Below, one piece after another: positions 1 to 42,687 of a DNA stretch of 42,687 bases. This stretch comes from a virus. The notes under the pieces were generated by a model. It was not told the DNA's origin. It did no database searches and worked only from the letters and a program-made list of their open reading frames with translations. The DNA lies in the IMG/VR virus record IMGVR_UViG_3300021387_001323; one strand, 5' to 3'. Made by a program: the position numbers and the translations under genes. The first letter of the stretch is position 1; each line of letters opens with the position of its first letter.

Positions 1-107
1 GTCCTCCTTTGTGATTGTGGGCTCCATTTACGCGGGGACGCTCAGGTCCCCGCATTTGATACTATTGGCGCTTCGCTTTGATAGAGATGCGGAAGCAGAC
101 GGGCACG
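1..107. repeat. Terminal direct repeat copy 1 (assembly overlap of a circular sequence)
   Basis: Identical base-for-base to 42581-42687; the RBS of the ParB-like gene (start 42573) lies inside the repeat, so genes read through the junction. Confidence 0.9.
32..53 (-). promoter_or_regulatory. Hairpin downstream of VR2 (candidate DGR target-recognition structure)
   Basis: GCGGGGAC (32-39) / loop GCTCAG / GTCCCCGC (46-53), perfect 8-bp stem; no U-tract follows on the minus strand; homologous hairpin after VR1 at 14112-14133. Confidence 0.6.
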
Positions 108-844
108 TAGAACGCGCTGGACGCGTGGTGGTAGTTGGAGAACCCGTAGCTGCCGACACGCACGACGAGCGACGAGCTGCCGGAGGGAGCCGAAGCAGTC
201 CACCAGGTGGCCATTTCCTCGCCTCCCGGCTCGGTGGCTTTCATGCGATTGCGTCGGTCTTTGTAAAAATCGAGCTGCTCATAGAGCGGAGCGTACCAGT
301 CATCATCCGGCTCAAAGAGCTCGGAAGCGTCCGGCAGGAAGAGTTTTGATCTGAAAGTCATCTCGTCAGCATCCTCGTCGCCGCCCTCTGTGAAACGTCT
401 CTCGGTGTCAATGATCAGTTCCCGGATGTAGTCCGGCAAAAGCGGTAGCATCTTCTCGTTGAGATACTTCTGCACATCGGACGCCCAGACGCCGCCAGCG
501 TTGCCGCCTTTTTCATTCCACACGGTCTTGCCGAGGCAGTCGTGAGAGTCGAAACGGATCCAGTCCTCGCCGCGGTCAACGATGTCAAAGCGTGCGGTCC
601 GTCCGTCTGTCAGCTCCATTTTGATGTAGTCACCGACTGCTGCATCTGCAAGGTCCTCAATAAAAGTCTGAGGCTTGTGCATCTGTGCTGCGCTTTCGCA
701 GCATCCGTGCTCACCCTGCTGTATTTTCGCAGCATATACGAACGGCTTGCCGATCTCTTTTAAATATTCCATCGCCTGGCTCATTGCGCCGTCTCCCTCG
801 GCTTCGATAGCCATGGTTCCTGTGATGATCTTGACCTTTTCCAT
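62..844 (-). CDS. DGR target protein 2: N-terminal unknown domain plus C-terminal C-type-lectin-like variable domain (paralogous to tail-fibre C-terminus)
   Basis: C-terminus ...ATWWTASAPSGSSSLVVRVGSYGFSNYHHASSAFYVPVCFRI parallels fibre C-terminus ...AYWWTASALSGSSTYVVFVSHHGTSGNGNASYAFCVPVCFRT; last ~117 nt match the TR; RBS AGGAGGGAGCACATG. Confidence 0.85.
   Translation of the reverse strand: MEKVKIITGTMAIEAEGDGAMSQAMEYLKEIGKPFVYAAKIQQGEHGCCESAAQMHKPQTFIEDLADAAVGDYIKMELTDGRTARFDIVDRGEDWIRFDSHDCLGKTVWNEKGGNAGGVWASDVQKYLNEKMLPLLPDYIRELIIDTERRFTEGGDEDADEMTFRSKLFLPDASELFEPDDDWYAPLYEQLDFYKDRRNRMKATEPGGEEMATWWTASAPSGSSSLVVRVGSYGFSNYHHASSAFYVPVCFRISIKAKRQ
96..212 (-). repeat. DGR variable repeat VR2
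   Basis: Aligns without gaps to TR 13514-13630; 21 differences, 20 at plus-strand T (= sense-strand A) of the TR. Confidence 0.9.
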
Positions 845-855
845 GTGCTCCCTCC

Positions 856-1593
856 TTATGCGATGATGGTGATCTGCTCGCGGTTCGGGATGTCCGCAAG
901 AGCTTCCTCAAGGTAGTGCTTTACATTAGCCACCGCCTCAGCTTTCCAGAGTCCGCCGTCAGCTGCTACAAGCTTAAAGGTCGGAGGGCATCCCTCGTTC
1001 TTTTTGATGCGGAAAATGAAATCACTGGCAGGCTGGTCCACCTCCAGGAAAGTGCGGTAGGGTGTCAGATTCACCGGATTCGGCACGATGGCGTTGTCCT
1101 TGTGCGCGACTCCACTCTTGATCACAACCTGCTGGGTGACGCCGTCGTCACTGTACTGCTCGTTCTGCTGGTCTGTGATGTTAGCCGCCACGGTTGCGAC
1201 AGCTGTGCGATCATCCGACTCCCTGAAGCAGCTCTGCAGAGAGATCAGGAAGCGCTCTTGGTCATATTCGTGACCAAAATCAAAAGAGGGCAGGAGAGCT
1301 CTGACCGTGAAAAGTGTCTCGCGTTTTCTCTCCTTTGTGAGTCCGGAGAACAATCTCACCGTGGTCTCGTCCTCGACCTGGATGATCATGCTCTCGCGGA
1401 GCTCGTCCCTCTTTTGCTTGATATAATCCACCAGTGCGGTGAGGGTTGTCGCTTCGATGCTTTTGGCCATCGGCTCCTCGTCGTATCTGGTCAGGTTTTT
1501 GTTGCAGTAGGTTTTGCCGTTGATTTCTACGACCTCGGGCTTTTCTGCTTTCGTTGCCAGTTCTGTGATAAAGGCAAGTGCGTCCTTAATCAT
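856..1593 (-). CDS. Hypothetical early phage protein
   Basis: ORF with RBS AAAGGAGGATAAAAATG at the internal Met (MIKDALAFI...); no motif I can name with confidence. Confidence 0.6.
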   Translation of the reverse strand: MIKDALAFITELATKAEKPEVVEINGKTYCNKNLTRYDEEPMAKSIEATTLTALVDYIKQKRDELRESMIIQVEDETTVRLFSGLTKERKRETLFTVRALLPSFDFGHEYDQERFLISLQSCFRESDDRTAVATVAANITDQQNEQYSDDGVTQQVVIKSGVAHKDNAIVPNPVNLTPYRTFLEVDQPASDFIFRIKKNEGCPPTFKLVAADGGLWKAEAVANVKHYLEEALADIPNREQITIIA

Positions 1594-1786
1594 TTTTATC
1601 CTCCTTTTCGTCCGGTCCCACAAAGTTGACCGTTTTCTCGTTGTATGGGTTTATGTTTCCTGCTTTGAAAATCCGACCACAGTCAAAGCACCGCAGGTGC
1701 TCCTTGTTGGCCGTTGTCTTTGCCATACCTGCGCACACCGGGCAGGCCGCCCGACCGTCCGGGTGCAGATATACCGAGTATTGCAT
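1586..1786 (-). CDS. Small zinc-ribbon protein
   Basis: CPVC...CFDC motif pair; start overlaps upstream stop (TGATG). Confidence 0.6.
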   Translation of the reverse strand: MQYSVYLHPDGRAACPVCAGMAKTTANKEHLRCFDCGRIFKAGNINPYNEKTVNFVGPDEKEDKND

Positions 1787-2355
1787 CAGCCCTCCGCTGC
1801 CATCTTGGCCAGTGCGTCGTAGTTTGGCGGATCTAAGATCTCGCCGGTCTCAGGATCTACGTCAACGCCGGGGATGGGTGCGAGTGCAGCCGCTCCTGTG
1901 AGCCTCCTGCCTTTTCTCAGGTCAATCGGTGGTGTTGCCGGATCCGGATCTTCCACGACCTGGGCGTTGATAATCTTTGCATTATCTTCGCCGATGACTT
2001 CCGGGGCGGTCTGCGCCAGTTCCCTGATCGACATCTGTCCGGGGATGTTGCCGTCGTACTCGCTGATCATGACCTCGCCAGTGCGCATATCCGTCCCCAT
2101 GAGCATCTGCGTCTCAATGGCTTCGGTGCTGGCCAGCTTTGTGGTGACCATGATCTGTGTGTTTACGACCTGGCGCGTCTTGCTTGGTGCAAAGGTCAGC
2201 ACAATGTTGATTTTGCGCTTTGTCGTGGGCTCCGTGTTTGGGTTCTGGATGTTCTCGCCGACCTGCAGGAGTGCTTCGCTCACTTTTTCACGAAAAGCGC
2301 CCTCTGCGAAGTCATTGAGGTCGATCATCCAGTCCGAGTCTCTGTGGTGTCTCAT
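1786..2355 (-). CDS. Hypothetical early phage protein
   Basis: ORF with GGAGGAG RBS 8 nt upstream, ATGA overlap with upstream gene. Confidence 0.6.
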   Translation of the reverse strand: MRHHRDSDWMIDLNDFAEGAFREKVSEALLQVGENIQNPNTEPTTKRKINIVLTFAPSKTRQVVNTQIMVTTKLASTEAIETQMLMGTDMRTGEVMISEYDGNIPGQMSIRELAQTAPEVIGEDNAKIINAQVVEDPDPATPPIDLRKGRRLTGAAALAPIPGVDVDPETGEILDPPNYDALAKMAAEG

Positions 2356-3047
2356 TCTGTGGACTCCTCCTTTTCTTCTATGCGTTGGACTTCCGGATCC
2401 TCCGCGGTTAAATAGTTACCTCTTAGTGCTCCGAGCTCAAGGCGCCGGAGCGTCTGCTCGCGATCCTCCCGCTCACGTCTGGCCGCTTCGATTTTCTTGC
2501 GACCGTCGCCCGCCAGCTTCTCGGTGATGTCGTCGATGGTATTTCTCACGCTTGCCGTCACCTGCTGCCGCTGGCGTTCTCTTTCAAAGAGTGGGCGGTA
2601 TATATCCATAAAAGCCACGCGATCCAGTCCGGGCTTTCCTCCGGTGATAGCCTGGCGCCTCAGTTCCCTCAGGTTTGACCATCCGACCGCCTTGACGGCC
2701 GTTCTGATCAGATCCGGGAGCTTGTCGCTTTCGTCTCCGAAGTCTCCGGAGGTGTAGAGCAGGTCAGTGACTGCAATCCACGCCTCGTCGGGCTGTATCA
2801 TATCCGGGCATTGTATGGTCCACATGATCTCGCGGATCTCTGCGATGCTTGGCGGCCATTTGTTGGTCTGGATGTGCTTCGCGACTGCCAGCTGCACCAG
2901 CTTCGCGTCATCCTCTGCAAAGGTTGCCGCCCAGATCTTTGCCATCCCCTCGACTGCCTGCTCTGATGCAAAGCGGTCGTGGTTAGGGTAGGCCGAGGAA
3001 ATTGCCGCCAGGACCTGCGCCGTTTCTTTCACTGTCATCAGCTGCAT
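2352..3047 (-). CDS. Replicative helicase loader/inhibitor (SPP1 G39P-like)
   Basis: N-terminal ...AAISSAYPNHDRF... motif typical of G39P-type loaders; position directly after replication organizer. Start at 3047 or 3038 (MQLMTV...). Confidence 0.55.
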   Translation of the reverse strand: MQLMTVKETAQVLAAISSAYPNHDRFASEQAVEGMAKIWAATFAEDDAKLVQLAVAKHIQTNKWPPSIAEIREIMWTIQCPDMIQPDEAWIAVTDLLYTSGDFGDESDKLPDLIRTAVKAVGWSNLRELRRQAITGGKPGLDRVAFMDIYRPLFERERQRQQVTASVRNTIDDITEKLAGDGRKKIEAARREREDREQTLRRLELGALRGNYLTAEDPEVQRIEEKEESTE

Positions 3048-3786
3048 CCTCCTCTCTGTAGATGCGTTCAAGCACTCCCATGGTGTCCACCTTGCGTCCC
3101 GCTGCCGGTTTTGATGTTGCAACCGTTCCGGCAGGTGTGAGCTCGTCGTCCCAGCGCCCCTGGTTCAACCAGGTGGCAGGGTGCGGTATAAACTGGCCGC
3201 CATCCTTTTGCCATTGCTGGGAGTTCTTTGCAGCTTCGACAGCTGTCAGGATCCTTTCAAAGAGTTCAGCTGTTGGCTTGATCTTTTTCCAGGACTTGAG
3301 AGCTGCTGCCTTGCCAACCTTGCGAGGGTAGAGCTTCCAAAACTCGTCGAAGCGTTCCGCCTGTAGGTCTTTTTTCGGTGCATCCACCGCCGCAGGTGGT
3401 GAAAGTGTTTTTATTGTCTCTGTATCTGTATCATTATCTGTATCTGTATCATTATCTGTATCTGTATCGGGTTTTTTGGGTTTCTCAAAAAACCGTTCGG
3501 TTTCTTGGCTTTCTTTCGGTTTCGGTGGTCGCCCACCTTTGAGACCGTTCTTTCGGTTGGTTTCGCACTTTTTCTCGTACTCCTCGCGGTCTCTGTCGAG
3601 CTGCGCCTTTATGAAAGAGTAAGCCATCGCCGCCGCTCCTCTCAGGTATGTGGGCTCTGGTCGCTCCGGATCCTCATGCGCGAAGATGGCCCGGAGTAGT
3701 TGTCCGCACTCTGCATCAGTCAGCTGATCGAGGTGCTCGGCGTAGTCCAGATAAAGCAGGAAGCTCTTTTTTGTGGTGTCCTGCAT
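2983..3786 (-). CDS. Phage replication initiator / replisome organizer
   Basis: C-terminal FDEFWKLYPRKVGK...KSWKKI...FIPHPATWLNQGRWDDE motif common in phage replication proteins; D/T/N linker; RBS GGAGGTGGTCAAGATG. Confidence 0.6.
   Translation of the reverse strand: MQDTTKKSFLLYLDYAEHLDQLTDAECGQLLRAIFAHEDPERPEPTYLRGAAAMAYSFIKAQLDRDREEYEKKCETNRKNGLKGGRPPKPKESQETERFFEKPKKPDTDTDNDTDTDNDTDTETIKTLSPPAAVDAPKKDLQAERFDEFWKLYPRKVGKAAALKSWKKIKPTAELFERILTAVEAAKNSQQWQKDGGQFIPHPATWLNQGRWDDELTPAGTVATSKPAAGRKVDTMGVLERIYREEDAADDSERNGAGPGGNFLGLP
3415..3468. repeat. Tandem 18-bp repeat (about 3 copies, TGTATCTGTATCATTATC) inside replication gene; candidate origin iterons
   Basis: Direct reading: tgtatctgtatcattatc x2 followed by tgtatctgtatc; encodes DTDTDN linker. 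Confidence 0.8.
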
Positions 3787-3804
3787 CTTGACCACCTCCT
3801 TGTC

Positions 3805-4188
3805 TTAGTTGAATGGCAGCTCCTCGTCGATGCCGTCCGGGATGTTCATGAAACCGTCGTCTGCCGGTTCTGATCCGCCTGCTGCATCCTGCGGTTTTGA
3901 GTCTGCGAAGTAGATATTTTTCGCGATGATCTCGGTCTGGCGGTGTTTCTGTCCGTCCTTTTCCCAGTCGTTGTTGTGCAGGGATCCGGAGACTACCACC
4001 TGGCGTCCTTTTTTGAGGTGCTTCTCGCAAAACTCTCCGAGCTTGTCAAAAGCTACAACCGGGAAAAACTCCGCCTTGTTGTTTGGCATATTGACGGCGA
4101 GAGTGAAGCGAGAGACCGCTTTCCCCTCTGCTGAGTACCTTGTCTCAGGATCTCGCGTAAGCCTCCCGAGTTCGTTCACTTGATTCAT
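3805..4188 (-). CDS. ssb: Single-stranded DNA-binding protein
   Basis: MNQVNELGRLTRDPETRY... OB-fold N-terminus and acidic C-terminal tail DGIDEELPFN. Confidence 0.9.
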   Translation of the reverse strand: MNQVNELGRLTRDPETRYSAEGKAVSRFTLAVNMPNNKAEFFPVVAFDKLGEFCEKHLKKGRQVVVSGSLHNNDWEKDGQKHRQTEIIAKNIYFADSKPQDAAGGSEPADDGFMNIPDGIDEELPFN

Positions 4189-7299: not shown

Positions 7300-7659
7300 A
7301 TGAGGGAAAAAATAGTCCGGTACCTTGAGGAAAACAAGATCACCGCCATGGAGCTTTCGCGTCGGAGCGGTGTCAAAAAATCAACCGTTTACAATTTGAT
7401 CAACGGTGACGCTGATCCGATGGAGCTCGGTATTTCCAAAGTGTTGGCACTGGCCAACGCCATGGGTATGACCGCCGAGGAGCTCTACGGTCTGCCACCT
7501 GTTGAAAACTCGGAGCCCACACCTGAGAAGATGCCCGTCAATGATTCGGAGCTTGAGCTTTTGGAATTATATCGAAACGCCACACCGGAAGCCCGCAGCA
7601 CCGTCGTCAATGTCCTGCGATGCAATCAGCGCGTGAAAAAAGAAGTGGCAATCTCTTAG
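7300..7659 (+). CDS. CI-like repressor (XRE-family HTH)
   Basis: ITAMELSRRSGVKKSTVYNLINGD HTH; divergent from Cro-like operon; RBS AAAGGAGGTGATAGTATG. Confidence 0.75.
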   Translation: MREKIVRYLEENKITAMELSRRSGVKKSTVYNLINGDADPMELGISKVLALANAMGMTAEELYGLPPVENSEPTPEKMPVNDSELELLELYRNATPEARSTVVNVLRCNQRVKKEVAIS

Positions 7660-7690
7660 TCGTGGATTTTACCATTTAGGAGGTGATTCT

Positions 7691-8113
7691 ATGGCAAAAA
7701 ATGAAACGCTGCCGAGTGTTATCGATATTATGGAGCAGGCCGACGAGTCTGCTCAGAGAGCTCTGCAGACTCTTTTGAAAAATTCACTTTATAAGAAAAG
7801 ACAAAAGACCGAGCCTGCTGCCGTTGAGCAGCTGGAGGATCTCGGTCTTATATCCGTGGTTGATGGTTCTGCGGTTTTTTCTCCGGATCTTGATGCCTGC
7901 AAGAAAAAGGTCTACACCTATTTGATGCGAAAGTATGAGGATCAGCAGTATTATGACGAGGATATGGAGCCGCACACCATTCCGCATGGTGCTCAGATGG
8001 TGGCCAGCGTCTCGCTTTCCGGTTCTGAGCTCCGCGTTGAGTTCCCGGATGATGATGTGACCGCCTTGCTCGATGCTCACGGCGTCAACCGTTGCAGGGG
8101 GTGGAAGCTGTGA
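7691..8113 (+). CDS. Hypothetical lysogeny-module protein
   Basis: RBS TAGGAGGTGATTCTATG; between repressor and integrase; no recognisable motif. Confidence 0.6.
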   Translation: MAKNETLPSVIDIMEQADESAQRALQTLLKNSLYKKRQKTEPAAVEQLEDLGLISVVDGSAVFSPDLDACKKKVYTYLMRKYEDQQYYDEDMEPHTIPHGAQMVASVSLSGSELRVEFPDDDVTALLDAHGVNRCRGWKL

Positions 8114-9738
8114 AAAAGAAAAAAGAGGTCGCTGCCGGATCTGTTCCGGCCGTGATCTATGCCAGATATTCAAGCAGTGGCCAGCGTGAGGAGTCCATTG
8201 AGGGACAGCTGAGAGACTGCCGGGAATATGCAAAAAAGAACGGCCTGCTCGTTGTTGGTGAGTATATTGACAAAGCCCTCACCGGTAGGACAGACAAGCG
8301 CCCGGACTTTCAGAGGATGCTCAGGGATTCCGAACGCGGAGCTTTCAAGGTCGTGATCTGCTGGAAGATGGACCGCTTTGCCCGCAACCGGTACGACTCG
8401 GCCATGTATAAATACAAGCTAAAAAAGAGCGGCGTCCGCCTGGTTTATGCCATGGAGTCCATCCCGGAGGGACCTGAGGGGATCATCCTCGAGAGCGTCA
8501 TGGAGGGATATGCTGAGTACTACTCCGAAAACTTGAGCCAGAACGTCAAGCGCGGATATTATGACAGCGCCCTGGAGCTCAAAACGCTCGGGCAGACTGT
8601 CCTGGGATATAGAAAAGGCACCGACGGTCGTTTTGAGATAGATCCGGCCACCGCTCCGGTCGTCCGGAGGATCTTCGAGGAGTATGCTGCCGGAGAACGC
8701 GCCAAAGACATCTACGAGAGACTCAACGAGGAGGGATATCGCACCACCCGTGGTGGAAAATTCAACAAAAACAGCATCCGGAGGATCCTGCAAAATGAAA
8801 AGTACGTGGGCGTCTATGAGTTCAAAGACATCCGCGTCGAAAATGGGATCCCGGCCATTGTGAGCCGTGAGCTGTTTGAGGAGTGTGGAAAAATGGTAGA
8901 AAAACACCACCGTGCGCCTGCTGCAAAGCGCGACGAGCCTTTCCTGCTCACCACGAAGATCTTCTGCGGAGAGTGTGGCGAGCCGATGACCGGAGACGCT
9001 GGTACCAGCAAAAGCGGCGCCGTGCATTATTACTATATTTGCAACGGCAGGCGGCGCCATACGTGCAAAAAGGAGCGCGTGCGAAAGAACGAGATCGAGG
9101 AGGCAGTGGTTTCCGAGCTTGTGCAGCTGATTCACTCCGGTGATTTTATTGAAAAGGTCGCAGATCTTGCGATGGAATACCAGGAGCGAGAAAAGGACAC
9201 GAGCGCACTCAAAGCACTCGAAGCCCGTCAAAAAGACATAGAAAAGAAGATCGAGAACGTCCTCAGAGCCATCGAGGACGGCATTGTGACCGCATCCACA
9301 AAGACGAGGCTCATGGAGCTGGAAGCCGAGCGGGCTGACATTGAAAAAGGGATAGCCAAAGAGCTGATAGCAACGCCGGAGCTCGACCGCGATCAGATTG
9401 TTTTCTTTTTGGAGAGGTTCCGGGATGGTGATGCAAAGGATGAGCGGTACCGGGAGTTCCTGGTTGACACGTTCCTGCAGGCCGTTTTCGTTTACGACGA
9501 CCGCCTTGTGATCACGCTCAACTATTCCGGCCAAAATAACAAAGTCACGAAGTCACTCGCAGACAAAGCCGCCAGCGGCGAGGGTTCTGGGTGTTCGTGT
9601 TTGGCGCCATCCGGCGCACTCAATGGCGCAGATTTGAACACCTCACCGATCCGGATCTTCTGGATTCAAAAGGTGATCGGAGTGGTCGCGCCGTATGATC
9701 GAAAGATTCAAGAGCAAAAGAAAAAAGCCAGGGTATAA
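8110..9738 (+). CDS. int: Large serine recombinase (integrase)
   Basis: AVIYARYSSSGQ...RPDFQRML...WKMDRFARN resolvase catalytic domain, recombinase domain and Cys-rich zinc ribbon (CGECG...CNGRRRHTC), coiled coil. Start GTG 8110 (GTGA overlap) or TTG 8092. Confidence 0.9.
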   Translation: MKKKKEVAAGSVPAVIYARYSSSGQREESIEGQLRDCREYAKKNGLLVVGEYIDKALTGRTDKRPDFQRMLRDSERGAFKVVICWKMDRFARNRYDSAMYKYKLKKSGVRLVYAMESIPEGPEGIILESVMEGYAEYYSENLSQNVKRGYYDSALELKTLGQTVLGYRKGTDGRFEIDPATAPVVRRIFEEYAAGERAKDIYERLNEEGYRTTRGGKFNKNSIRRILQNEKYVGVYEFKDIRVENGIPAIVSRELFEECGKMVEKHHRAPAAKRDEPFLLTTKIFCGECGEPMTGDAGTSKSGAVHYYYICNGRRRHTCKKERVRKNEIEEAVVSELVQLIHSGDFIEKVADLAMEYQEREKDTSALKALEARQKDIEKKIENVLRAIEDGIVTASTKTRLMELEAERADIEKGIAKELIATPELDRDQIVFFLERFRDGDAKDERYREFLVDTFLQAVFVYDDRLVITLNYSGQNNKVTKSLADKAASGEGSGCSCLAPSGALNGADLNTSPIRIFWIQKVIGVVAPYDRKIQEQKKKARV

Positions 9739-9754
9739 CGCCCTGGCTCTTTTG
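9726..9754. terminator. Bidirectional intrinsic terminator between convergent integrase and lysis genes
   Basis: AGCCAGGG (9726-9733) / CCCTGGCT (9741-9748) stem flanked by A6 upstream and CTTTTG downstream. Confidence 0.7.
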
Positions 9755-9757
9755 TTG

Positions 9758-10156
9758 CTATTCTTTTTCCGGTGTTTTGGTTTCTCTGACCGTCTGCTCG
9801 ATCTTGGTGTTGAGCCAGAGGTCGAAGTTGCCATACTCCTCGGCGATGATCTTCTGAGTCTCCTCGTCGATCATGTTGCGAGCTTCAGACTTTGCCATCT
9901 CGAAAGCCTTGCTCTGCGCTTCCGGCGTAAAGGATCCGGAGCGTTTCAAGCTGTCAACATAGGTCTGCATGACATAAATGACCGACTGCTCGACCGTGTT
10001 GATCGCTTCCAGGATGATGGCTCTGAAAGCCTCGTCCTCGACCTGCATCGCCTTGTTTTTCAAGTATGCAGCAGCCCAGCGCAAAGCGTAGGCCATAAGA
10101 GGCACCACGACGGCCAAAACGACCGCGAGGATGATCTTTCCCATGAGTTCGTCCAT
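9758..10156 (-). CDS. Putative holin (LL-H-family-like, single N-terminal TM)
   Basis: N-terminal TM GKIILAVVLAVVVPLMAYAL followed by helical domain; directly downstream of endolysin. Confidence 0.5.
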   Translation of the reverse strand: MDELMGKIILAVVLAVVVPLMAYALRWAAAYLKNKAMQVEDEAFRAIILEAINTVEQSVIYVMQTYVDSLKRSGSFTPEAQSKAFEMAKSEARNMIDEETQKIIAEEYGNFDLWLNTKIEQTVRETKTPEKE

Positions 10157-10170
10157 TGTTTCGCCCTCCT

Positions 10171-10944
10171 TTATACTTTCTTAGCATAATCGAGGCTGAT
10201 CCATCCGGCGCCGCTCTTGAGCTTGCCCCATCCGGTTTTTGAGCCTTTTCCGCTCTTGACCTCGACGATTGTATAAACTCCGGGCTTGATGACGCCCTTT
10301 CTTGCGGTGTCAGTTCCTGCGCCTGCTCGGATGTTTAGGTCAGTGATTGAGACTCTGACCTTGAAAACTCCCGTTGTTGGCGTCGGTGTTACTGCCGGAG
10401 AGTCGGATCCTGCGCCGAGTCTCTTGTTGACCTCCTGAGCGATCCAGCCGTGGAGCTTGTAGAGATAGTCGCCAGGGCACGCCTTGGCTGCATAGTCACG
10501 GTGCACGGTCATGTTGCAGCCGTTCAAGTGGTTCACGCGGTCGTTTTTGTTCTCTGACCAGACGAGCTTCTTGATGCTGTTACGCTTGCAGATGTCCTCG
10601 ACCAGATTGAGCAGCGAAGCCAGCGCCTTGTCTGATACGTGCCAGCCGGTATTTGCTCCGCCATCGTTTGCCACCTCGATGGTGACGGCTCTCATGTCGT
10701 TCGCTCTGTTTGAGGTACACCAGGAGCGGTCTTTTTCCTCGACATACATGGCAATGCGGCCATCGGATCCGATGCCGTAGTTGCTGGACGCCTGTCTTGA
10801 AGTAGGCGCGAACACGTTGCCGCAGGTCTCGACCGTGAGATTGCCGGCCATGCAGTGAATCGTGATCGTGTCGATGGCGTGATTTCTTGGGCTGGTTTTG
10901 TTCGGGCTGATTTTGGTGTAGCACACCAGTGAGCTGTTACTCAT
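10171..10944 (-). CDS. Endolysin: N-acetylmuramoyl-L-alanine amidase (Amidase_2/PGRP-like) with C-terminal SH3-like domain
   Basis: ITIHCMAG...SSNYGIGSDGRI...HRDYAAKACPG catalytic motifs; C-terminal ...NIRAGAGTDT...GWGKLKSGAGWISLDY SH3b-like. Confidence 0.85.
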   Translation of the reverse strand: MSNSSLVCYTKISPNKTSPRNHAIDTITIHCMAGNLTVETCGNVFAPTSRQASSNYGIGSDGRIAMYVEEKDRSWCTSNRANDMRAVTIEVANDGGANTGWHVSDKALASLLNLVEDICKRNSIKKLVWSENKNDRVNHLNGCNMTVHRDYAAKACPGDYLYKLHGWIAQEVNKRLGAGSDSPAVTPTPTTGVFKVRVSITDLNIRAGAGTDTARKGVIKPGVYTIVEVKSGKGSKTGWGKLKSGAGWISLDYAKKV

Positions 10945-11889: not shown

Positions 11890-12099
11890 CTATTCATCCG
11901 CAGCGGCAAGCTCCTCCTCGAGCTCGTTGATGCGCTCGCGGTAGCTTTTGCGGAGTTCTTTCATCTCCTCATAGTCTGCGTCAGAGATCTCACCCTCTGA
12001 GTGTTTGATTGCCTGGTAGTCCGTGTTGCTCAGGAGCTGCTTGTAGGCGTTGATCTCGCCCTGGATCTCCTGGCTCGGTCTTGCTGTTTTCTTTGCCAT
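11890..12099 (-). CDS. Hypothetical small coiled-coil protein
   Basis: RBS AAAGGAGGACAAGAAAATG. Confidence 0.55.
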   Translation of the reverse strand: MAKKTARPSQEIQGEINAYKQLLSNTDYQAIKHSEGEISDADYEEMKELRKSYRERINELEEELAAADE

Positions 12100-13261
12100 T
12101 TTCTTGTCCTCCTTTTGGATTGGTTATTTGTTGGCCGCCTATCCAGTTTTCAATAAATAGGCGATTAAAAAGAGCGTCCATGCTCTTGACGGTCCGATAT
12201 GCGTCGCGGTGGCTCATGGATCCGCGCCAGCTGGCGTATGATGTCCGGATGTTCTCGAAAGTAAGAACACCCTCCTCCAGGAGCTTCGCTTGCTTTTTCA
12301 GTTTTCTGCGTTCGCGTGTTATTGCATCCCTGCAGGGCTTCTTGATGATGTGGCCGCTGTCTGTGATATAAAAGCGGGTTTTCAAGTACGTGAAGCCGTG
12401 GCGCAGGTCGCAGATTTTTGTCTTTTTCTCGTTGATTATGATGCCATACCTGGCATATACCTCCCGGAGCTTTTCAAGGCACTCCCTGAGATATTCCACA
12501 TCCTCGTGGATCAGATAGCTGTCGTCCATATAGGCGCCGTACCCTTTTATCCGGAGCACTTCCTTGGCAAAGTGATCCGACGGGCTCCTGAGTGCGACCG
12601 CGTTGATCTGGCTGGTCTCTGATCCGAGACCGAGGCCGATGTCTCCGAAAGCATAAATAAACGACAGCCCGAGAGCTCGGAGCCTGTCGTCATAAAATGC
12701 CGCCCGGTAGATCTTTTCGAGAGCTGCATGGTCTGCCTGGCCAAAATAATCACTAAAGTCGATCAAAAGGATCCCGCCGGTGCGTCCATGCCTGTGGATG
12801 TGTCTCACCAGGTGGATCGTCATGCGATCGAGTGCAAACTGCGTGCCTTTTCCTCTTTGACTGGCTCCGTTGTCATAGATCAGGGAGTTCGTCAAAACTG
12901 GATAGAGGGCGTTCCTGCAGATGCTTTTCTGGACTACTCGCTCAGAAAAATGCACGCTTTTGATGTGCCTGAGCTTTCCGCGTTCCATAAGATCAAAGCA
13001 GATAAATCCCTTTCGGATGTCTCTGCCTTTTAACAAGTCCCGGTGTGTCCGGTATATGTTGAGCATCCGCGTGTAGTTGTAACGCTGGACGCTTGCTTTC
13101 CAGGCGACGCCGACCTGTGCCTCGTCTGCAGCTTTATTCAACGAGTTGAGAGATGCAACGCGATCAAAGTCATCGTACTCCGACAGCTTTGCCCGGCGCT
13201 TTGCATCTCTGGCCGATTTTCGGCGCAGGTATCGGCGCTCGCGTCGTTCTTCGCTTGTCAT
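11990..13261 (-). CDS. DGR reverse transcriptase
   Basis: YMDD catalytic motif (GYGAYMDDSYLI), LGLGSETSQINAV (DGR-type SQ motif), ILLIDFSDYFGQ motif; adjacent to TR. Confidence 0.9.
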   Translation of the reverse strand: MTSEERRERRYLRRKSARDAKRRAKLSEYDDFDRVASLNSLNKAADEAQVGVAWKASVQRYNYTRMLNIYRTHRDLLKGRDIRKGFICFDLMERGKLRHIKSVHFSERVVQKSICRNALYPVLTNSLIYDNGASQRGKGTQFALDRMTIHLVRHIHRHGRTGGILLIDFSDYFGQADHAALEKIYRAAFYDDRLRALGLSFIYAFGDIGLGLGSETSQINAVALRSPSDHFAKEVLRIKGYGAYMDDSYLIHEDVEYLRECLEKLREVYARYGIIINEKKTKICDLRHGFTYLKTRFYITDSGHIIKKPCRDAITRERRKLKKQAKLLEEGVLTFENIRTSYASWRGSMSHRDAYRTVKSMDALFNRLFIENWIGGQQITNPKGGQENGKENSKTEPGDPGRDQRLQAAPEQHGLPGNQTLRG

Positions 13262-13640
13262 TTCTCCGTGTTCCTTTGTTAAATTAAAAAACAGTCACCG
13301 GGCACGGCTTAGCGCGTTATTGTAACCGCATAGGATGCAGGCATGAAGCAAAAGGCTCTCGCGCTCCCTTTTGCCATGCAAGAAGCGTCCGCCTGCTCTC
13401 GTCCCGGTTCTTATTTACGCCTCAAAGGGCGAGGGATGACTGCTCCTTCCACCCACTTGGCACGGCTTTCGGCTCTTTTGGAGCTTACTCGATCTGGCTC
13501 TATTGCGTGGGATCAGACGGGCACGCAGATCGCGTTGGACGCGTTGTTGTTGTTGGAGTTCCCGTTGTTGTTGACATTCACGACGTTCGTCGAGTTGCCG
13601 GAGTTAGCCGAAGCAGTCCACCAGTTGGCCCGAGCACCAC
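13262..13640 (-). ncRNA. DGR template RNA region (TR plus 252-nt spacer leading to RT)
   Basis: No credible minus-strand ORF; contains TR, a 13-bp hairpin (13341-13379) and the 10-nt repeat GGCACGGCTT at 13301-13310 and 13459-13468. Confidence 0.65.
13514..13640 (-). repeat. DGR template repeat (TR)
   Basis: 127 bp; sense strand reads GGARANWWTASANSGNSTNVVNVNNNGNSNNNNASNAICVPV with 14 AAC/AAT codons; 31 adenines. Confidence 0.9.
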
Positions 13641-13663
13641 ATAACAGCAGTCATCCCGTTGAT

Positions 13664-14092
13664 TTATTTGTTTTTCCCTTTTCCTCCGACCGGTATCACT
13701 TTGTCGTTGTCTCTATGGCGCATCGCGAGCCCGATCTCTTTGTCGAGAAGCTCAAGGATGTCGGCCATGGATGCAGACGTTGCGGACGGGATCACGTTCT
13801 GCGCTCGTGCCAGCTTCCGGTCGAGTTGTTTGCAGGCTGTGATCGTCATCCTCCAGTAGTCCCGGCGCCTGTCGATGTGTTTTTCATCCGGCCAGGTCTC
13901 GTTTGCTGCGATTGCGCAGTCGCTGATCTTGTCAGCTGCTTCCACCAGCGGGACGCCCACGAGTTGCCTCCATCTTTTCGGGATCCGCTTTTCGTTCATG
14001 ACGTAGAGCGTCACTGCATCCTGGAGACGTGCCGCGACATCCACCGGATCGAAGTGTGTCTGCTTTCTGTTTCTCGCATAGACTCCGCTCAT
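13664..14092 (-). CDS. avd: Accessory variability determinant (Avd)-like protein
   Basis: 142-aa basic, predicted helical protein located between target gene and TR, the canonical Avd position; RBS GGAGGTACACGATG. Confidence 0.6.
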   Translation of the reverse strand: MSGVYARNRKQTHFDPVDVAARLQDAVTLYVMNEKRIPKRWRQLVGVPLVEAADKISDCAIAANETWPDEKHIDRRRDYWRMTITACKQLDRKLARAQNVIPSATSASMADILELLDKEIGLAMRHRDNDKVIPVGGKGKNK

Positions 14093-14111
14093 CGTGTACC
14101 TCCGGTGTTAT

Positions 14112-14133
14112 GCAGGGGCGCAGAGGCCCCTGC
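14112..14133 (-). promoter_or_regulatory. Hairpin downstream of VR1 (candidate DGR target-recognition structure)
   Basis: GCAGGGGC / loop GCAGAG / GCCCCTGC, perfect 8-bp stem, no U-tract; covaries with hairpin at 32-53. Confidence 0.6.
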
Positions 14134-14156
14134 TATTTGTGCATTGCATCGGTCGC

Positions 14157-15494
14157 TTACGCTTCCATAGTTCGGAAGCAGACGGGCACGCAGAACGCGT
14201 AGGACGCGTTGCCGTTGCCGGAGGTCCCGTGGTGGCTGACAAACACGACGTACGTCGAGGAGCCGGAGAGAGCCGAAGCAGTCCACCAGTAGGCCCGAGC
14301 ACCACCCGGGCCAGCACCTTTCATGCGGTGCTCATAGCTGTTGGCAAAGATCGGATACTGAACAGCCTGACCGTTGCCGTAGCCCTTGGTTGACCATACG
14401 AGGCAGTCGAAGATCTCAGTCTCAAGAGGCGCCCAGAGCTTGTCGAAGTCCTGCCACGCCCACGAGTTGTCGTCCGTAAGAGTTGCGCCGCTCTGATAAC
14501 GAGATGGTGCGAGGATTCTCTTTGCCTTGATGACGTTCTTGAGCTTTGCATCCAAAAGCGGGTAAAGTGTGCCGTCGAGCCAGCTCTTGAGGTTTGAGGC
14601 AAGAAACGGGCTTGGACTGTTGGCGTTGCCGTTGTTGTTATTTGTTGTGTTAAACTGCACCGTCTGGCTGTAGCAATCGCGAGTGATCCAGTCGATGTGG
14701 TAGCCAACTTCGTGACCAGTGTCTCCGGTTCTTCTGTAGGTGTTTATACCTGCAATCTCCGCAAGATGATTCTCGGCGCCGACTTTGATTGGAATATAAT
14801 CGCCGACACGCAAACCGCTCACATTATGAGCATCGAGCCTTGCCTGGATCCACGCCCATTCGTCTGAGTAGTTTGCAATCTCATCGGCAAAAATGACCGT
14901 CAAGTCTCTGCCTGGGAGCATGATGCGGTTGATCCCGTCCCATGCCGCCTCTGTCTCTGCTGCCTGAGCAGTCTCAAAGGCTGCCTCTTTTGCAACCTGA
15001 TCGGCAAGGTCGTCCGCGAGAGCGTAAGCTCCGGCACCTGCCTCGATGGTCACGTTCGCAGAGTTGTCAACCGTTGCGTAGTATTCCTGGACGATGGTTG
15101 TCGGTGTGAGTCCATTGTATGGCGGCATATAGTCAGCGACCTGAGCCACCGAGATGGAATAGAGCACCGGTACCGCATCGGGATCGAGTGCGTCCGTTGC
15201 ATAAAGTCCGACCTCTCTGACGTAGTAACCAGCCAGGAGCTCCTCGTTGTCAAGTGCTGCCGTGAGGTGCACGCTTGTGTCGGATTCCACCACAATGCTG
15301 GAAAAAGCGACGCTCTGCTTCTGACTTTTGAGAGCTGTCCGCTGCTGCAATGCTGAGACAGCACGCTCGCCCTCTGTGTATTCACCATCACCGGCGACCA
15401 GTGTGGTAAATTCGATCTTTGCGGTGCCTGCCAGGGCGGCGGCAAGCAGCGCAGCTCCGTCGTTTGTCATGACGGCTGCATAAAATTGAGCCAT
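14157..15494 (-). CDS. Tail fibre / receptor-binding protein, DGR target 1
   Basis: N-terminus MAQFYAAVMTNDGAALLAAALAGTAKIEFTTLVAGDGEY resembles phage tail-collar fibre N-domain; C-terminal lectin-like domain ends in VR1; follows baseplate I-like gene. Confidence 0.85.
   Translation of the reverse strand: MAQFYAAVMTNDGAALLAAALAGTAKIEFTTLVAGDGEYTEGERAVSALQQRTALKSQKQSVAFSSIVVESDTSVHLTAALDNEELLAGYYVREVGLYATDALDPDAVPVLYSISVAQVADYMPPYNGLTPTTIVQEYYATVDNSANVTIEAGAGAYALADDLADQVAKEAAFETAQAAETEAAWDGINRIMLPGRDLTVIFADEIANYSDEWAWIQARLDAHNVSGLRVGDYIPIKVGAENHLAEIAGINTYRRTGDTGHEVGYHIDWITRDCYSQTVQFNTTNNNNGNANSPSPFLASNLKSWLDGTLYPLLDAKLKNVIKAKRILAPSRYQSGATLTDDNSWAWQDFDKLWAPLETEIFDCLVWSTKGYGNGQAVQYPIFANSYEHRMKGAGPGGARAYWWTASALSGSSTYVVFVSHHGTSGNGNASYAFCVPVCFRTMEA
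14179..14305 (-). repeat. DGR variable repeat VR1
   Basis: Gap-free alignment to TR 13514-13640; 18 differences, all at TR sense-strand adenines. Confidence 0.95.
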
Positions 15495-34862: not shown

Positions 34863-36251
34863 CTACACCTCCCCGTTGTTTGTTTCCACGCCTGCTGCCC
34901 CTGCTGCCAAAATAGGAGCCCATACCTCGCGGGCTTGCTCCTTTCCCTTGCGGATCAGGCGCAGGTCGGTGTCACCGGTGAGCTGCACGTAGCGGCGGAC
35001 GATGGTGTCCGTGTAGCCCGGCGTGAGTTCCATGATGTACGCCTGCTGCCCTTGCTTCTCAGCTGCTGCAAGGCTGGTCCCGCTGCCTCCGAACGGATCA
35101 TAGACGCCCAGCGCCCAGGCAGTGTTGTCGAGGATCTTCTCCAGGAGCTCCAGGGGCTTCTGGGTTGGGTGGAGTTCATTGCCGGAGCGGGTGCACTGGA
35201 TGACGTTGCCGTATCCTTTGTGGTTGTCCCAGTTGGCTTTGCGCTTGATGCCAAACATACAAAGCTCGTGCTGGGCTCTCCATCCGAAGCCCATGCCGGG
35301 TGTCTGCTTATCCCATACGATCATTGACTTCACCCCCAGTCCTGAGCTCTCCACTAAGTCGTAGAGATATACCCACATTCTCCAGTCTGTAAAGATATAG
35401 GCCACCGTCGCCGGGCTGTTCGCCAGCACGTTCTTGATCAGGGACTGGTAGCCCCTCGTGCTCAGCGTGTCGTTTGCTATCTTTACCTCGATTTCCTTGC
35501 CGTCCTTGTCGTATCGTTTCGTCCCGATCGAGCCTGATGACCGCCCCCCCTCCTGGAAGCCTCCGGAGCAGTACGGTGGATCAGTGAGCAGGATCTCCGG
35601 CTGCGCACCATCCAGGAGCTCAGCAACCTGCTTCTCGTTTGTGGAGTCGCCGCACATAACGCGATGACGGCCGAGGATCCACACGTCGCCCACCATAGAG
35701 ACCGGAGCGGCAGCAGGCTCAGGATCGAAGTCGTCGCCCTTGTCGTTGTCGAGCTCCTCGTGTACTGATTCCGCCAGCTGGTTGATGATCTGCTCGATCT
35801 CTGTCTCCTTGTAGCCGGTCTGGTCCAGGTCGATCTCTCCGGTGTCGATCTCCGCGAAGATGTCGGCCAGCATCTTGTTGTCAACCTCTGCCAGCTCGGC
35901 GATGCGGTTGTCGGCTATGAGGTCGGCATATTCCTCCGCCTCTGATGCGTAGTCCTGATAGTCAACCGGCACCTGGTCGAGACCCGCCAGCTGTGCAGCC
36001 ATGAGACGGCCGTGCCCCTTTACGATGTAGCCGGAGCGATTGGAGACCGTGATCGGCTGACGCCAGCCCGATGACTTGATGATCTTGGCCAGCATCTTGA
36101 TCTGGTCGTCCGGGTGCTTGTTTGGGTTTGCCGGGTTCGGTACCAGCTTTACCGTGTCCACGATCTTGTCGTGTGCACAATAAACCGGCACACCGGCAGC
36201 AGTCCCTTTTTGCTTTGGTTCTGCTTTGGTTTCCTTTGGTTCTTTTGACAT
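34863..36251 (-). CDS. ParB-like nuclease domain fused to DNA methyltransferase (N6A/N4C, DPPY type)
   Basis: N-terminal ParB-N (PNPANPNKHP...VKGHGRLMAA); MTase motifs LLTDPPY (IV) and VYDPFGGSGTS (I). Confidence 0.85.
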   Translation of the reverse strand: MSKEPKETKAEPKQKGTAAGVPVYCAHDKIVDTVKLVPNPANPNKHPDDQIKMLAKIIKSSGWRQPITVSNRSGYIVKGHGRLMAAQLAGLDQVPVDYQDYASEAEEYADLIADNRIAELAEVDNKMLADIFAEIDTGEIDLDQTGYKETEIEQIINQLAESVHEELDNDKGDDFDPEPAAAPVSMVGDVWILGRHRVMCGDSTNEKQVAELLDGAQPEILLTDPPYCSGGFQEGGRSSGSIGTKRYDKDGKEIEVKIANDTLSTRGYQSLIKNVLANSPATVAYIFTDWRMWVYLYDLVESSGLGVKSMIVWDKQTPGMGFGWRAQHELCMFGIKRKANWDNHKGYGNVIQCTRSGNELHPTQKPLELLEKILDNTAWALGVYDPFGGSGTSLAAAEKQGQQAYIMELTPGYTDTIVRRYVQLTGDTDLRLIRKGKEQAREVWAPILAAGAAGVETNNGEV

Positions 36252-40911: not shown

Positions 40912-42573
40912 TTATTCATCGTCACCGTCTTCGGTGTCGTCATTTTCGTCGTCTTCCTCGTCCAGTTCGTCGTAGTATTCGCCGTCTGTGCAGTATCCGT
41001 ACTTCTCACCGTCCCAGTCGCAAGTGTCAGCCTCTTCGTTGTAGTGCTTGCATCCATCGCACTGGATGTTATCCACATCATTCTCTGTCACTGGCTCAGG
41101 CTTGTCGAAGAGCTCATGGCTTCCGTCTGTGATCTGGCGGAGTTCATCGTCTGACCAGCCAAAACCGAACGGCTCCAGAGCTTTCACGACTGCTGCCATC
41201 TTCCTGATGCTTTCGTCTTTTGCGAGACAGCTCCAGTCGGCCATCTCTATATTTTCAAGCCCTCTCTTGAAGAGGATCAGCATCTGCTGGTCAATCGGGA
41301 GAGCTGCAAAAAGTTTTTCGGCGGTCTCTTTTTCTTCACCTTTGATGGTCCACTTATCTTTTCCGGTGATATAGGAGAGAGCCTCGCCTATACTTACGTA
41401 GGTTTCCAGGGTGAGCAGTGCGCTCCAGATTCCCGGCATTGACTCTTCCGGTTTTATTGCCTCAACGCGGCCGTCGATGATATTCTTGATAAAGTCCATA
41501 ATTTCGGAGACCGCCGCCTTTGTGCGTTCCTTGATCTTTTTCCTTTTCTTTTCTCTTTCTTTCTGTTCTATCTCGTAGGGTGAGAGCTGTCTTTCTGCCT
41601 CTTTCTGCTTTTTTCTTGCCCGGCAGATCTTGAGGCCTCGCCAGCTTTCACTCCAGAAGAGCTCGTCGCCCTCAGCTGCACCCTCGATTCTCAATCGCTT
41701 CGCAGGCTCTTCGCTCAGGTCGATCTCTTTCAAGGTCTCGAAGTTGGTGCCGTAGTCGTTGCGCATCTCGGGTTTTTCCTTGATGCCTCTGGCGTCCAGC
41801 ATCTCAAGCCATACCTTTGCGTGCTCGGCTCTTTTTTCGGCTGTCACTTCCTGCAGGGCTCTTCTGACGAGATCCTGGGAGCTTGTCGCTTCTTTGAGCA
41901 CCTTGTTCCTGGTCTTGATGTTCTTGATCTTCTCCAGCTCGTAGTAGTCCTTGAGGGAGAGCTGGAAGCTGTCGTCTTTTTCCTTTTCCCTGACCACCTT
42001 GCTGTCGAGCTTTGCGATGTTGAGGCGGTGCTGGATGGTAGTGTGGCCGAAGCCGGTCTTTTTCTCGATGGTTTCGATTGTCTCGCCGAGGTCGAGCATC
42101 ATCTGAAAGCCCTGAGCCTGCTCCCAGATCGTCAAGTCATTGCGTTGCATATTCTCTTCAAGCATGATGCCGAGCTGCGTCTTAAATGGGATCCGGGTGA
42201 GGATCCTGCAAGGGAGCTCTTTGATGCCTGCCTGCCTTGCGGCTTCGAGGCGGCGGTTGCCGATCAGCACAAAGTATCGATGCTCGCCCTTGCTGCCGTT
42301 CGGGTTTTCCTCAAAAGGTTCCACCGGGACGTCTGCGTTGTAGTCCTTATCCTTGCCGACCATGATGATGACGGTCAGGTTCTGCATGACGCCGTTCTTT
42401 TTCATAGATTCCACCAGCTCGGTGAGATCTCCGAGGTCTTTTCTCGGGTTCTCCGGGTGATGCTCCAGCTGGCTGGTGTTGATCATGACGATCTTGCTGC
42501 TCTGGTACTCCTGGGCGGTGGTTTCCTCCGCCACGGGTACCGGGTTTTCTGTTTTCTTCTTAGGTCTTGCCAT
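40912..42573 (-). CDS. ParB-like N-terminal domain protein (partition/nuclease-like) with acidic Cys-rich C-terminus
   Basis: ...LEHHPENPRKDLGDLTELVESMKKNGVMQNL...FVLIGNRRLEAARQAG (ParB GxRR box) ...HTH GFGHTTIQHRL. Confidence 0.8.
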   Translation of the reverse strand: MARPKKKTENPVPVAEETTAQEYQSSKIVMINTSQLEHHPENPRKDLGDLTELVESMKKNGVMQNLTVIIMVGKDKDYNADVPVEPFEENPNGSKGEHRYFVLIGNRRLEAARQAGIKELPCRILTRIPFKTQLGIMLEENMQRNDLTIWEQAQGFQMMLDLGETIETIEKKTGFGHTTIQHRLNIAKLDSKVVREKEKDDSFQLSLKDYYELEKIKNIKTRNKVLKEATSSQDLVRRALQEVTAEKRAEHAKVWLEMLDARGIKEKPEMRNDYGTNFETLKEIDLSEEPAKRLRIEGAAEGDELFWSESWRGLKICRARKKQKEAERQLSPYEIEQKEREKKRKKIKERTKAAVSEIMDFIKNIIDGRVEAIKPEESMPGIWSALLTLETYVSIGEALSYITGKDKWTIKGEEKETAEKLFAALPIDQQMLILFKRGLENIEMADWSCLAKDESIRKMAAVVKALEPFGFGWSDDELRQITDGSHELFDKPEPVTENDVDNIQCDGCKHYNEEADTCDWDGEKYGYCTDGEYYDELDEEDDENDDTEDGDDE

Positions 42574-42580
42574 TTTCTTT

Positions 42581-42687
42581 GTCCTCCTTTGTGATTGTGG
42601 GCTCCATTTACGCGGGGACGCTCAGGTCCCCGCATTTGATACTATTGGCGCTTCGCTTTGATAGAGATGCGGAAGCAGACGGGCACG
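42581..42687. repeat. Terminal direct repeat copy 2
   Basis: Identical to 1-107. Confidence 0.9.

Follow-up and report, generated by a model that had tools for sequence, protein, structure and literature searches.

A stand-alone DUF6273 gene in the early region of a Lachnospiraceae phage as a probable active second target of the phage's single DGR

Introduction

Phage DGRs are known almost entirely from receptor-binding tail proteins. In phage BPP-1, a single adjacent target, Mtd, forms a trimeric tail-fibre tip with a beta-prism and a beta-sandwich; its variable repeat (VR) lies at the C-terminus on a C-type-lectin fold, and adenine-specific homing from the template repeat (TR) to the VR involves Avd and a reverse transcriptase (RT). 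This homing needs a hairpin or cruciform downstream of the VR, with a stem of 7-10 bp and a 4-nt GRNA loop, 4-34 bp away (Guo et al. 2011, PMC3240598). Targets can also lie away from the cassette: non-adjacent targets occur in 45 of 372 DGRs, and the phage-associated ones are usually within the same prophage (Wu et al., PMC5758913). The DGR of the Bacteroides phage Quimbyvirus has one structural target and one in a defence-related island, the latter interpreted as a non-structural protein that may take part in conflict between phage and host (Benler et al. 2021, PMC8008677). Small DUF6273 second targets have further been described in Faecalibacterium and gut-virome phages (PMC11792537; PMC10743442; 10.1101/2024.10.15.618418).

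Roseburia phage Shimadzu carries two VRs, VR1 in the tail fibre gene orf22 and VR2 in orf43, a gene of unknown function (Cornuault et al., 10.1101/575076; ISME J 2020). Both VRs are diversified: the share of diversified reads is 2% for virions in vitro and 47-65% for mouse viromes (10.1101/575076). VR2 alleles, unlike those of VR1, showed no clear selection in mice during lytic blooms; the isolates each had a different VR2 allele with none dominant, and the authors considered the gene less important for multiplication (10.1101/575076).

Here we analyse a comparable locus in a virus sequence of 42,687 nt (IMG/VR record IMGVR_UViG_3300021387_001323; hereafter the window), annotated as a temperate P2-like myovirus, a gut prophage and Lachnospiraceae phage. 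An earlier note on this DNA had pointed to a second, remote DGR target in the early operon. The novelty which it implied was overstated, as the Shimadzu arrangement (10.1101/575076), Wu et al. (PMC5758913) and Benler et al. (PMC8008677) precede it; the arrangement of one cassette with two targets is already published and no new mechanism is revealed. What is new here is the early-region placement of the target 2 family in five phage backbones; the pairing and covariation of the hairpins, their non-canonical loop and a very clear natural case of VR2 activity add modestly to this.

Results

A single DGR cassette with two targets

The window starts and ends with the same 107 bp, and therefore represents a circular or terminally redundant unit of 42,580 bp (Table 1). 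Its annotated genes comprise the terminase, portal/protease, capsid, sheath, tape measure, baseplate J/wedge and the VR1-bearing tail fibre, which is followed by the Avd-like protein, the TR, the RT, an endolysin, a serine recombinase and a repressor. The leftward early operon runs from a replication initiator (DUF6291) through a G39P-type helicase loader, phrog_997 and phrog_1029 to the gene for a 260-aa protein, target gene 2. Since the window closes through the terminal repeat, target gene 2 lies between a replication-module gene and the ParB-like gene, an order across the junction that the earlier note had claimed and that is contiguous in three relatives (L003, L018 and L020). Its ribosome-binding site overlaps the upstream gene's stop codon, which suggests that the two genes are translationally coupled as part of the early operon, and no promoter-like or terminator-like site was called on the minus strand of positions 1-4000.

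Table 1. Coordinates of the DGR cassette, its two targets and neighbouring features in the window
Feature	Position	Strand	Description
Terminal direct repeat	1..107	.	107 bp, identical to 42581-42687
GC-rich hairpin, 42 nt downstream of VR2	32..53	-	8-bp stem GCGGGGAC/GTCCCCGC, loop CTGAGC; from folding
Target gene 2	62..844	-	260-aa stand-alone DUF6273 protein; orthologue of Shimadzu orf43
IMH-like 3' motif	90..95	-	CTTCCG, common to VR1 and VR2; TR has ATCCCA there
VR2	96..212	-	Variable repeat, codons 212-249; ungapped match to TR
Target 2 ribosome-binding site	848..857	-	AAGGAGGGAG; overlaps stop codon of upstream gene; read from sequence
Upstream early gene, phrog_1029	856..1623	-	Last replication-module gene before target 2; adjacency conserved in relatives
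DGR reverse transcriptase	11990..13261	-	Pfam RVT_1, phrog_1423
Structured RNA between TR and RT	13274..13502	-	Rfam RT-2 motif RF03077
TR	13514..13630	-	Template repeat, 117 nt, 31 adenines, 14 AAY codons
Avd-like accessory protein	13664..14092	-	142 aa; canonical position
Hairpin, 45 nt downstream of VR1	14112..14133	-	8-bp GC-rich stem GCAGGGGC/GCCCCTGC, 6-nt loop CTCTGC; from folding
Target gene 1, tail fibre	14157..15494	-	N-terminal tail-collar domain, C-terminal DUF6273 domain
VR1	14179..14295	-	Within tail fibre gene; 18 mismatches to TR, 18/18 at adenines
ParB-like gene	40912..42573	-	Pfam ParB_N, phrog_6218; directly downstream of target 2 across circular junction

VR2 differs from the TR at 21 of the 117 ungapped positions, and 20 of these mismatches fall on the 31 sense-strand adenines of the TR (hypergeometric P for at least 20 of 21, 9e-14); outside the adenines, 85 of 86 positions are identical. 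The exception, a G at TR position 13526 that is an A at window position 108 and turns Cys246 into Tyr, means that not all VR2 differences are canonical. A scan of the whole window that ignored adenine positions recovered exactly one TR and two VRs, VR1 and VR2, and no third VR. The gapless alignment, and the reading that one RT and one TR serve two loci, had both been put forward from the sequence beforehand; they are borne out by the adenine patterns of the three repeats together with the single Avd-TR-RT cassette. VR2 had also been described as the last 117 nt of the gene, which is right for the match to the TR and wrong for the literal gene end, as ten codons and a stop (62-95) come after it.

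Between the TR and the RT, the match to RF03077 (E = 4e-29) reaches 125.9 bits, where the gathering score is 40, and this RT-2 RNA motif presumably forms the spacer portion of the DGR RNA. The Avd-like protein had no match among Pfam, NCBIfam and PHROG HMMs, and NCBIfam likewise gave none for the target 2 protein or the product of the upstream gene.

Paired cis elements follow both variable repeats

VR1 and VR2 both end in ...GTGCCCGTCTG and then read CTTCCG, while the TR continues with ATCCCA; CTTCCG is kept after every VR in the relatives and in Shimadzu. Each VR is also followed by a hairpin, and so is every VR1 and VR2 examined among the relatives and in Shimadzu: the stems covary without losing complementarity, and the loops are of type CTNNGN, except for a GCAA loop in the post-VR hairpin of a more distant clade. 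We propose the hairpin beside target gene 2 as a candidate DGR target-recognition hairpin or cruciform, a role suggested by its conservation. BPP-1 likewise has an IMH-type 3' junction, and the hairpins recall the GC-rich one that follows its VR (PMC3240598), but the 6-nt CTNNGN loop and the spacing of 42-45 nt are both outside the BPP-1 consensus (PMC3240598). The hairpins were also considered as intrinsic terminators, a role that we rejected because they lack a T-tail and no minus-strand terminator was called.

VR2 varies while the rest of the gene is conserved

The window provides a clean natural example of VR2 variation. A second assembly of the same phage (L018) aligns with it without gaps over 20,783 bp, and the two assemblies (ERZ12302816 and ENA ERZ28612940), which may stem from the same sample or from different ones, differ at 24 positions. 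All 24 lie inside VR2 (window 108-208), and 23 are at TR-adenine positions; the 24th is position 108, where L018 carries the G of the TR. Variation is likewise essentially confined to codons containing a TR adenine in an alignment of 21 proteins at least 85% identical, in which the residues seen are those that the TR codons allow (ACT giving Thr or Ala; ATC giving Ile, Leu or Phe). Codon 246 (TR TGC) is the exception among these homologues, being Tyr in the window and Arg in two of them.

The relative IMGVR_UViG_3300011979_000367, with an RT 88% identical to that of the window, has a TR that differs from the window TR at six non-A positions. Its VR2 has the bases of its own TR at all six, and the internal mismatches between them are adenine-only. 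Since VR2 of this relative follows its own TR, VR2 was rewritten from the cognate TR after the lineages split. The adenine patterns of VR2 and TR were re-verified in two phages of a different backbone (L021 and L022) and in Shimadzu.

Compared with four relatives, target gene 2 has a dN/dS of 0.12-0.20 outside the VR and of 1.2-1.8 inside it, and its open reading frame is intact in more than 40 homologues. These dN/dS values indicate that the gene has been maintained as a functional scaffold and is no stray piece of a fibre. Diversification of VR2 by the phage's own DGR is, on these data, close to certain. That window positions 62-844 are a genuine, currently active second target of the single DGR is likely when the explanation is taken as a whole, together with the early-binder reading developed in the Discussion.

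The target 2 protein has a single, probably lectin-like domain

The product of target gene 2 is an acidic protein of 29.4 kDa (pI 4.8). A match to Pfam PF19789 (DUF6273) at residues 121-254 (E = 2.9e-12) is its sole Pfam domain and lies in the C-terminal part. The protein is 35% identical over 145 aa to the C-terminal domain of the phage's own tail fibre (E = 2e-16), and both match DUF6273. No transmembrane segment or signal peptide is apparent, the highest Kyte-Doolittle mean over 19 residues being 0.57. The earlier note had described both the paralogy of the C-terminal half with the lectin-like domain of the fibre and the lack of a signal peptide or transmembrane segment, and was right on both. 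In an AlphaFold model (built with 43 homologues, mean pLDDT 82), residues 60-260 form one confident globular domain, residues 34-56 are disordered and residues 1-33 form a low-confidence hairpin and helix. The N-terminal 60 residues have low pLDDT, have no family match, are poorly conserved and are nearly absent from Shimadzu orf43. In the model, the VR forms surface beta-strands in a beta-hairpin.

Among solved structures (Foldseek, PDB), the best match of the model is the DUF6273 N-terminal domain of the IgA peptidase of Thomasclavelia ramosa (E = 1.6e-4; PMC12402451), whose role there gave no functional lead. We regard target 2 as a probable lectin-like (C-type-lectin-like) domain, to which classical C-type lectin structures in the PDB match weakly. 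No Mtd chain is among the Foldseek PDB matches listed, and no tail-collar, beta-prism, beta-sandwich or other attachment domain was found in the protein, which is not Mtd-like by that test. Pfam and the AlphaFold model show no Ig domain either, and by that test the protein is not a tentaclin (tentaclins: PMC10743442).

Predicted viral structures that match target 2 include many gut-phage DUF6273 proteins, either small and stand-alone or fused to fibre or receptor-binding proteins. A profile search of 1.8 billion representatives returned 2,667 relatives, 483 of them at E <= 1e-10; among the best 150 of the 2,667, most have 170-320 aa, with giant multi-repeat proteins making up a smaller share. 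When the family profile was run against PDB sequences, the sole hit, caltractin, was dismissed as due to chance (E = 0.46).

The early-region position is a trait of the family

In every context retrieved, the target 2 family lies in the early or replication region, across five phage backbones and never in the tail module; the contexts examined were the window, L003/L004, L005, L018, L020, L021, L022, L023 and Shimadzu. The placement of the gene in the early/replication operon, which had been claimed for the window, thus extends to related phages. Close relatives, a lineage of 50% identity and a prophage in a Lachnospiraceae MAG all share the synteny of the window. L021 and L022 have a different backbone with a REP_ORF2-G2P initiator, in which the target 2 homologue follows the divergent repressor at the first to third position, the DGR cassette lies across the lysogeny module from it, and the internal differences between VR2 and TR are adenine-only. 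The homologue of L023 stands between PcfJ-type genes and SSB, and orf43 of Shimadzu between methyltransferases and Erf. These contexts indicate that the early-region position is a family trait and that the exact neighbours are not.

Comparison with described two-target systems

A tblastn search of GenBank phages returned one relative of target 2, Shimadzu orf43 (LR596903), which is 42% identical (E = 1e-39; residues 70-253 against 32-208). Megablast of window positions 1-4000 against INPHARED phages gave no match, and Shimadzu was found at the protein level only. Both phages are temperate P2-like myoviruses of Lachnospiraceae with the gene order tail fibre-Avd-TR-RT, and besides the small target they share an RT of 71% identity; the Avd-like protein of the window is 44% identical (E = 3e-36) to the one annotated as Avd in Shimadzu. 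In both, a small stand-alone DUF6273 protein of the early region has the second VR at its C-terminal end, some 13 kb away from the TR, and both VRs are followed by the ...GTCTGCTTC junction and a CTNNGN-loop hairpin. They differ in that the window protein has 260 aa against 209 aa in orf43, with about 50 extra N-terminal residues, in that the window gene stands between the helicase-loader block and the ParB-like gene instead of the neighbours of orf43, and in the lack of megablast-level DNA identity between the genomes.

Quimbyvirus, likened here by description, also has one RT with two C-type-lectin targets, the first close to the tail genes and the second distal, surrounded by genes for methyltransferases and nucleases, but it belongs to another phage family, has a host of another phylum and carries a frameshifted RT. 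The Faecalibacterium phages Lelie/CP11, the Toutatis-like phages and nd4/nd12 (tgt2) resemble the window in having one TR and two VRs, with both targets being DUF6273 proteins with a C-terminal VR; the smaller target has 234-294 aa and no assigned function, and the remote VR of Toutatis is 17.5 kb from its TR. Their partner target is Hoc-like or a tentaclin (C-lec and Ig domains) and not a tail-collar fibre, and tblastn found no homologue of the window protein in these phage records. Like the DGR of BPP-1, that of the window has TR-to-VR changes specific to adenines, an RT, a candidate Avd and a VR at the C-terminus of a probable C-type-lectin-like domain; it differs in having a second, remote target that lacks attachment domains.

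Discussion

We propose a model in which the cassette at 11990-14092, comprising Avd, the TR, the RT-2 RNA and the RT, would make adenine-mutagenised cDNA from the TR, and this cDNA would replace either VR1 in the adjacent tail fibre gene or VR2, which lies 13.3 kb from the TR on the circle and would be about 29 kb from it in an integrated prophage. Both VRs would be recognised in trans through the IMH-like GTGCCCGTCTG-CTTCCG junction and, 42-45 nt on, the 8-bp GC hairpin with its CTNNGN loop. Target gene 2, probably translationally coupled into the early replication operon, would yield a signal-less acidic protein of 29 kDa with a poorly ordered N-terminus of about 60 residues and one DUF6273 domain, on which the diversified surface beta-hairpin (residues 212-246) is the predicted ligand-binding site, with about 1e18 possible sequences. 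We tentatively favour the view, to which we give somewhat less than an even chance, that this protein is an early-made, soluble cytoplasmic binder of a variable ligand from the host or a competitor, possibly related to defence, and not part of the virion. The conserved early location, the operon coupling, the absence of both signal peptide and attachment domain, and the weak selection on VR2 in lytic blooms speak for such a binder; the words 'early' and 'cytoplasmic' rest on the position of the gene, its coupling to the upstream gene and the lack of a signal peptide.

Two other explanations would deny the variation of VR2 a role. The earlier note had named, as its own refuting case, a VR2 that has decayed into an inactive relic or a displaced, unexpressed tail-fibre fragment. 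The distance of the gene from the cassette and the single non-adenine mismatch near the 3' end of VR2 could be taken in this sense, but at the latter position L018 has the TR base, and the restriction to VR2 of all differences between two assemblies over 20.8 kb, an intact and constrained reading frame with a strong ribosome-binding site, and the experimentally active orthologous VR2 of Shimadzu leave this reading hardly credible. We rejected it on the comparison with L018 and the dN/dS values, and the variation among homologues and the tracking of the cognate TR likewise describe a live target. It is also conceivable, if quite improbable, that diversification of VR2 is a by-product: junction motif and hairpin would have been kept by descent from a duplicated fibre tip, the variation would be near-neutral and the protein would function independently of it. 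The paralogy of the two domains fits such a descent, and so do the Shimadzu isolates, with their different VR2 alleles and a gene deemed less important for multiplication (10.1101/575076). Against it, lineages down to 42% protein identity and unrelated replication backbones alike have retained the VR, CTTCCG and a hairpin whose stem changes compensate each other; purifying selection acts on the scaffold, and TR and VR2 have remained matched at non-A positions after divergence of the TR. Conservation of these VR2 elements reflects their continued use and is not by itself proof of benefit.

A further alternative accepts a selected binding function but places it on the virion. Target 2 would then be an accessory receptor-binding protein or adhesin that uses its N-terminal segment to dock on the tail or capsid and broadens adsorption to bacterial or gut-surface ligands. 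To our knowledge, the well-understood phage DGR targets are all receptor-binding proteins, without exception. Phage tail fibres and receptor-binding proteins commonly carry DUF6273 domains at their tips, as does the fibre of this phage, and a receptor-binding role is favoured by the authors who described similar small targets (PMC10743442; 10.1101/2024.10.15.618418). We nevertheless consider an adhesin less likely than the early binder, though it is a serious rival: the gene is found in the early/replication region in five backbones and never in the tail module, the protein is without a tail-collar, beta-prism or other attachment domain, Mtd is absent among the Foldseek matches listed, and the short N-terminal segment on which docking would depend is poorly conserved and all but missing from Shimadzu orf43. 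In Shimadzu, moreover, VR1 alleles were selected in lytic blooms whereas VR2 alleles were not (10.1101/575076).

The cytoplasmic binder therefore remains the reading that we prefer for the window. A hypervariable, signal-less lectin-like protein that is kept in early operons points to a ligand that may be intracellular, and the VR2-only differences between assemblies, together with the conserved early location and the paired cis elements, make the family tractable for pull-downs and deletion studies. As a more speculative extension, which we think unlikely at present, the small stand-alone DUF6273 proteins could constitute a conserved group of early-expressed cytoplasmic binders, diversified by DGRs against intracellular factors of the host or of rival phages, such as defence proteins. 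If true, such a class would extend the function of DGRs beyond receptor recognition. Small stand-alone DUF6273 genes often adjoin methyltransferase or ParB-like genes in several unrelated Lachnospiraceae phage backbones.

Genomic setting and predicted expression of the second target

The small stand-alone DUF6273 protein that carries VR2 is also found in a different phage backbone, represented by L021 and L022, where its gene occupies position 1-3 of a rightward early operon that begins directly after a divergent HTH repressor. From this position it would be one of the earliest genes to be transcribed once these phages are induced. In the window, two ParB_N-domain proteins lie in the early/middle region; the second (34863-36251) has counterparts in relatives that are fused to an N6_N4 methyltransferase, and HNH, RecU and Dam-like genes are present in relatives as well. 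Taken together, these genes make the neighbourhood of the second target rich in DNA-modification functions, a setting that recalls that of Quimbyvirus.

The short arc separating VR2 from TR is occupied by the lysogeny module. The gene order of L003, a relative with a homologue of the second target, suggests that the attachment site lies beside the serine recombinase gene. If so, the 13.3-kb spacing between VR2 and TR holds for the circular form only, and in an integrated prophage with the L003 order the two would be approximately 29 kb apart, near opposite ends.

Coordinates of features in the window and in two phages of a different backbone
Feature	Position	Strand	Remarks
Hairpins 3' of the VRs	32-53; 14112-14133		compared with those of L019, L005, L008-L011 and L020
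Lysogeny module	7300-10189	+	repressor-like HTH and 548-aa serine recombinase
RT reading frame	11990-13261	-	423 aa
RT-2 RNA motif (Rfam RF03077)	13274-13502	-	full-length match, 125.9 bits
275-aa ORF	13343-14170	+	antisense to TR and Avd
ParB_N-domain proteins	40912-42573; 34863-36251	both -	early/middle region
Small DUF6273 target region, different backbone	L021 1-512 and 7001-7711; L022 6793-7545		

RNA elements and components of the DGR

The RT-2 motif, which fills the exact gap from TR to the RT start codon, presumably represents the structured spacer of the RNA with which the DGR primes cDNA synthesis. The RT frame extends about 45 residues past the end of its alignment with the 379-aa RT of Roseburia phage Shimadzu (L019), and overlaps the next small ORF (11890-12099). 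The 275-aa ORF is almost certainly spurious, arising from a GC-rich antisense frame.

Hairpins following the VRs were compared between the window, Shimadzu (after orf22 and orf43), L005, L008-L011 and L020. Whereas the published phage consensus has a GRNA loop of 4 nt located 4-34 bp away (PMC3240598), the hairpins of this clade stand at a distance of 26-60 nt from the VR and carry loops of 5-7 nt that follow the pattern CTNNGN. Their stems covary from one phage to another, and also between the VR1 and VR2 hairpins of a single phage.

Sequence variation and relatives of the target protein

The sole TR/VR2 difference that does not fall on an adenine, at window position 108 (-), converts codon 246 of the 62-844 gene from TGC to TAC (Cys to Tyr). 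This Tyr is private to the window assembly, and Cys is found in a second assembly of the same phage (L018) and in nearly all homologues. The difference could have arisen through a rare misincorporation at a position other than A, by point mutation since homing last took place, or from an error in the assembly.

The profile of the target family also matches giant proteins, including P0060 (3,973 aa), P0062 (3,404 aa) and P0085, strongly (E down to 1e-107), with up to 12 tandem DUF6273-like stretches in each; these are probably bacterial surface proteins.
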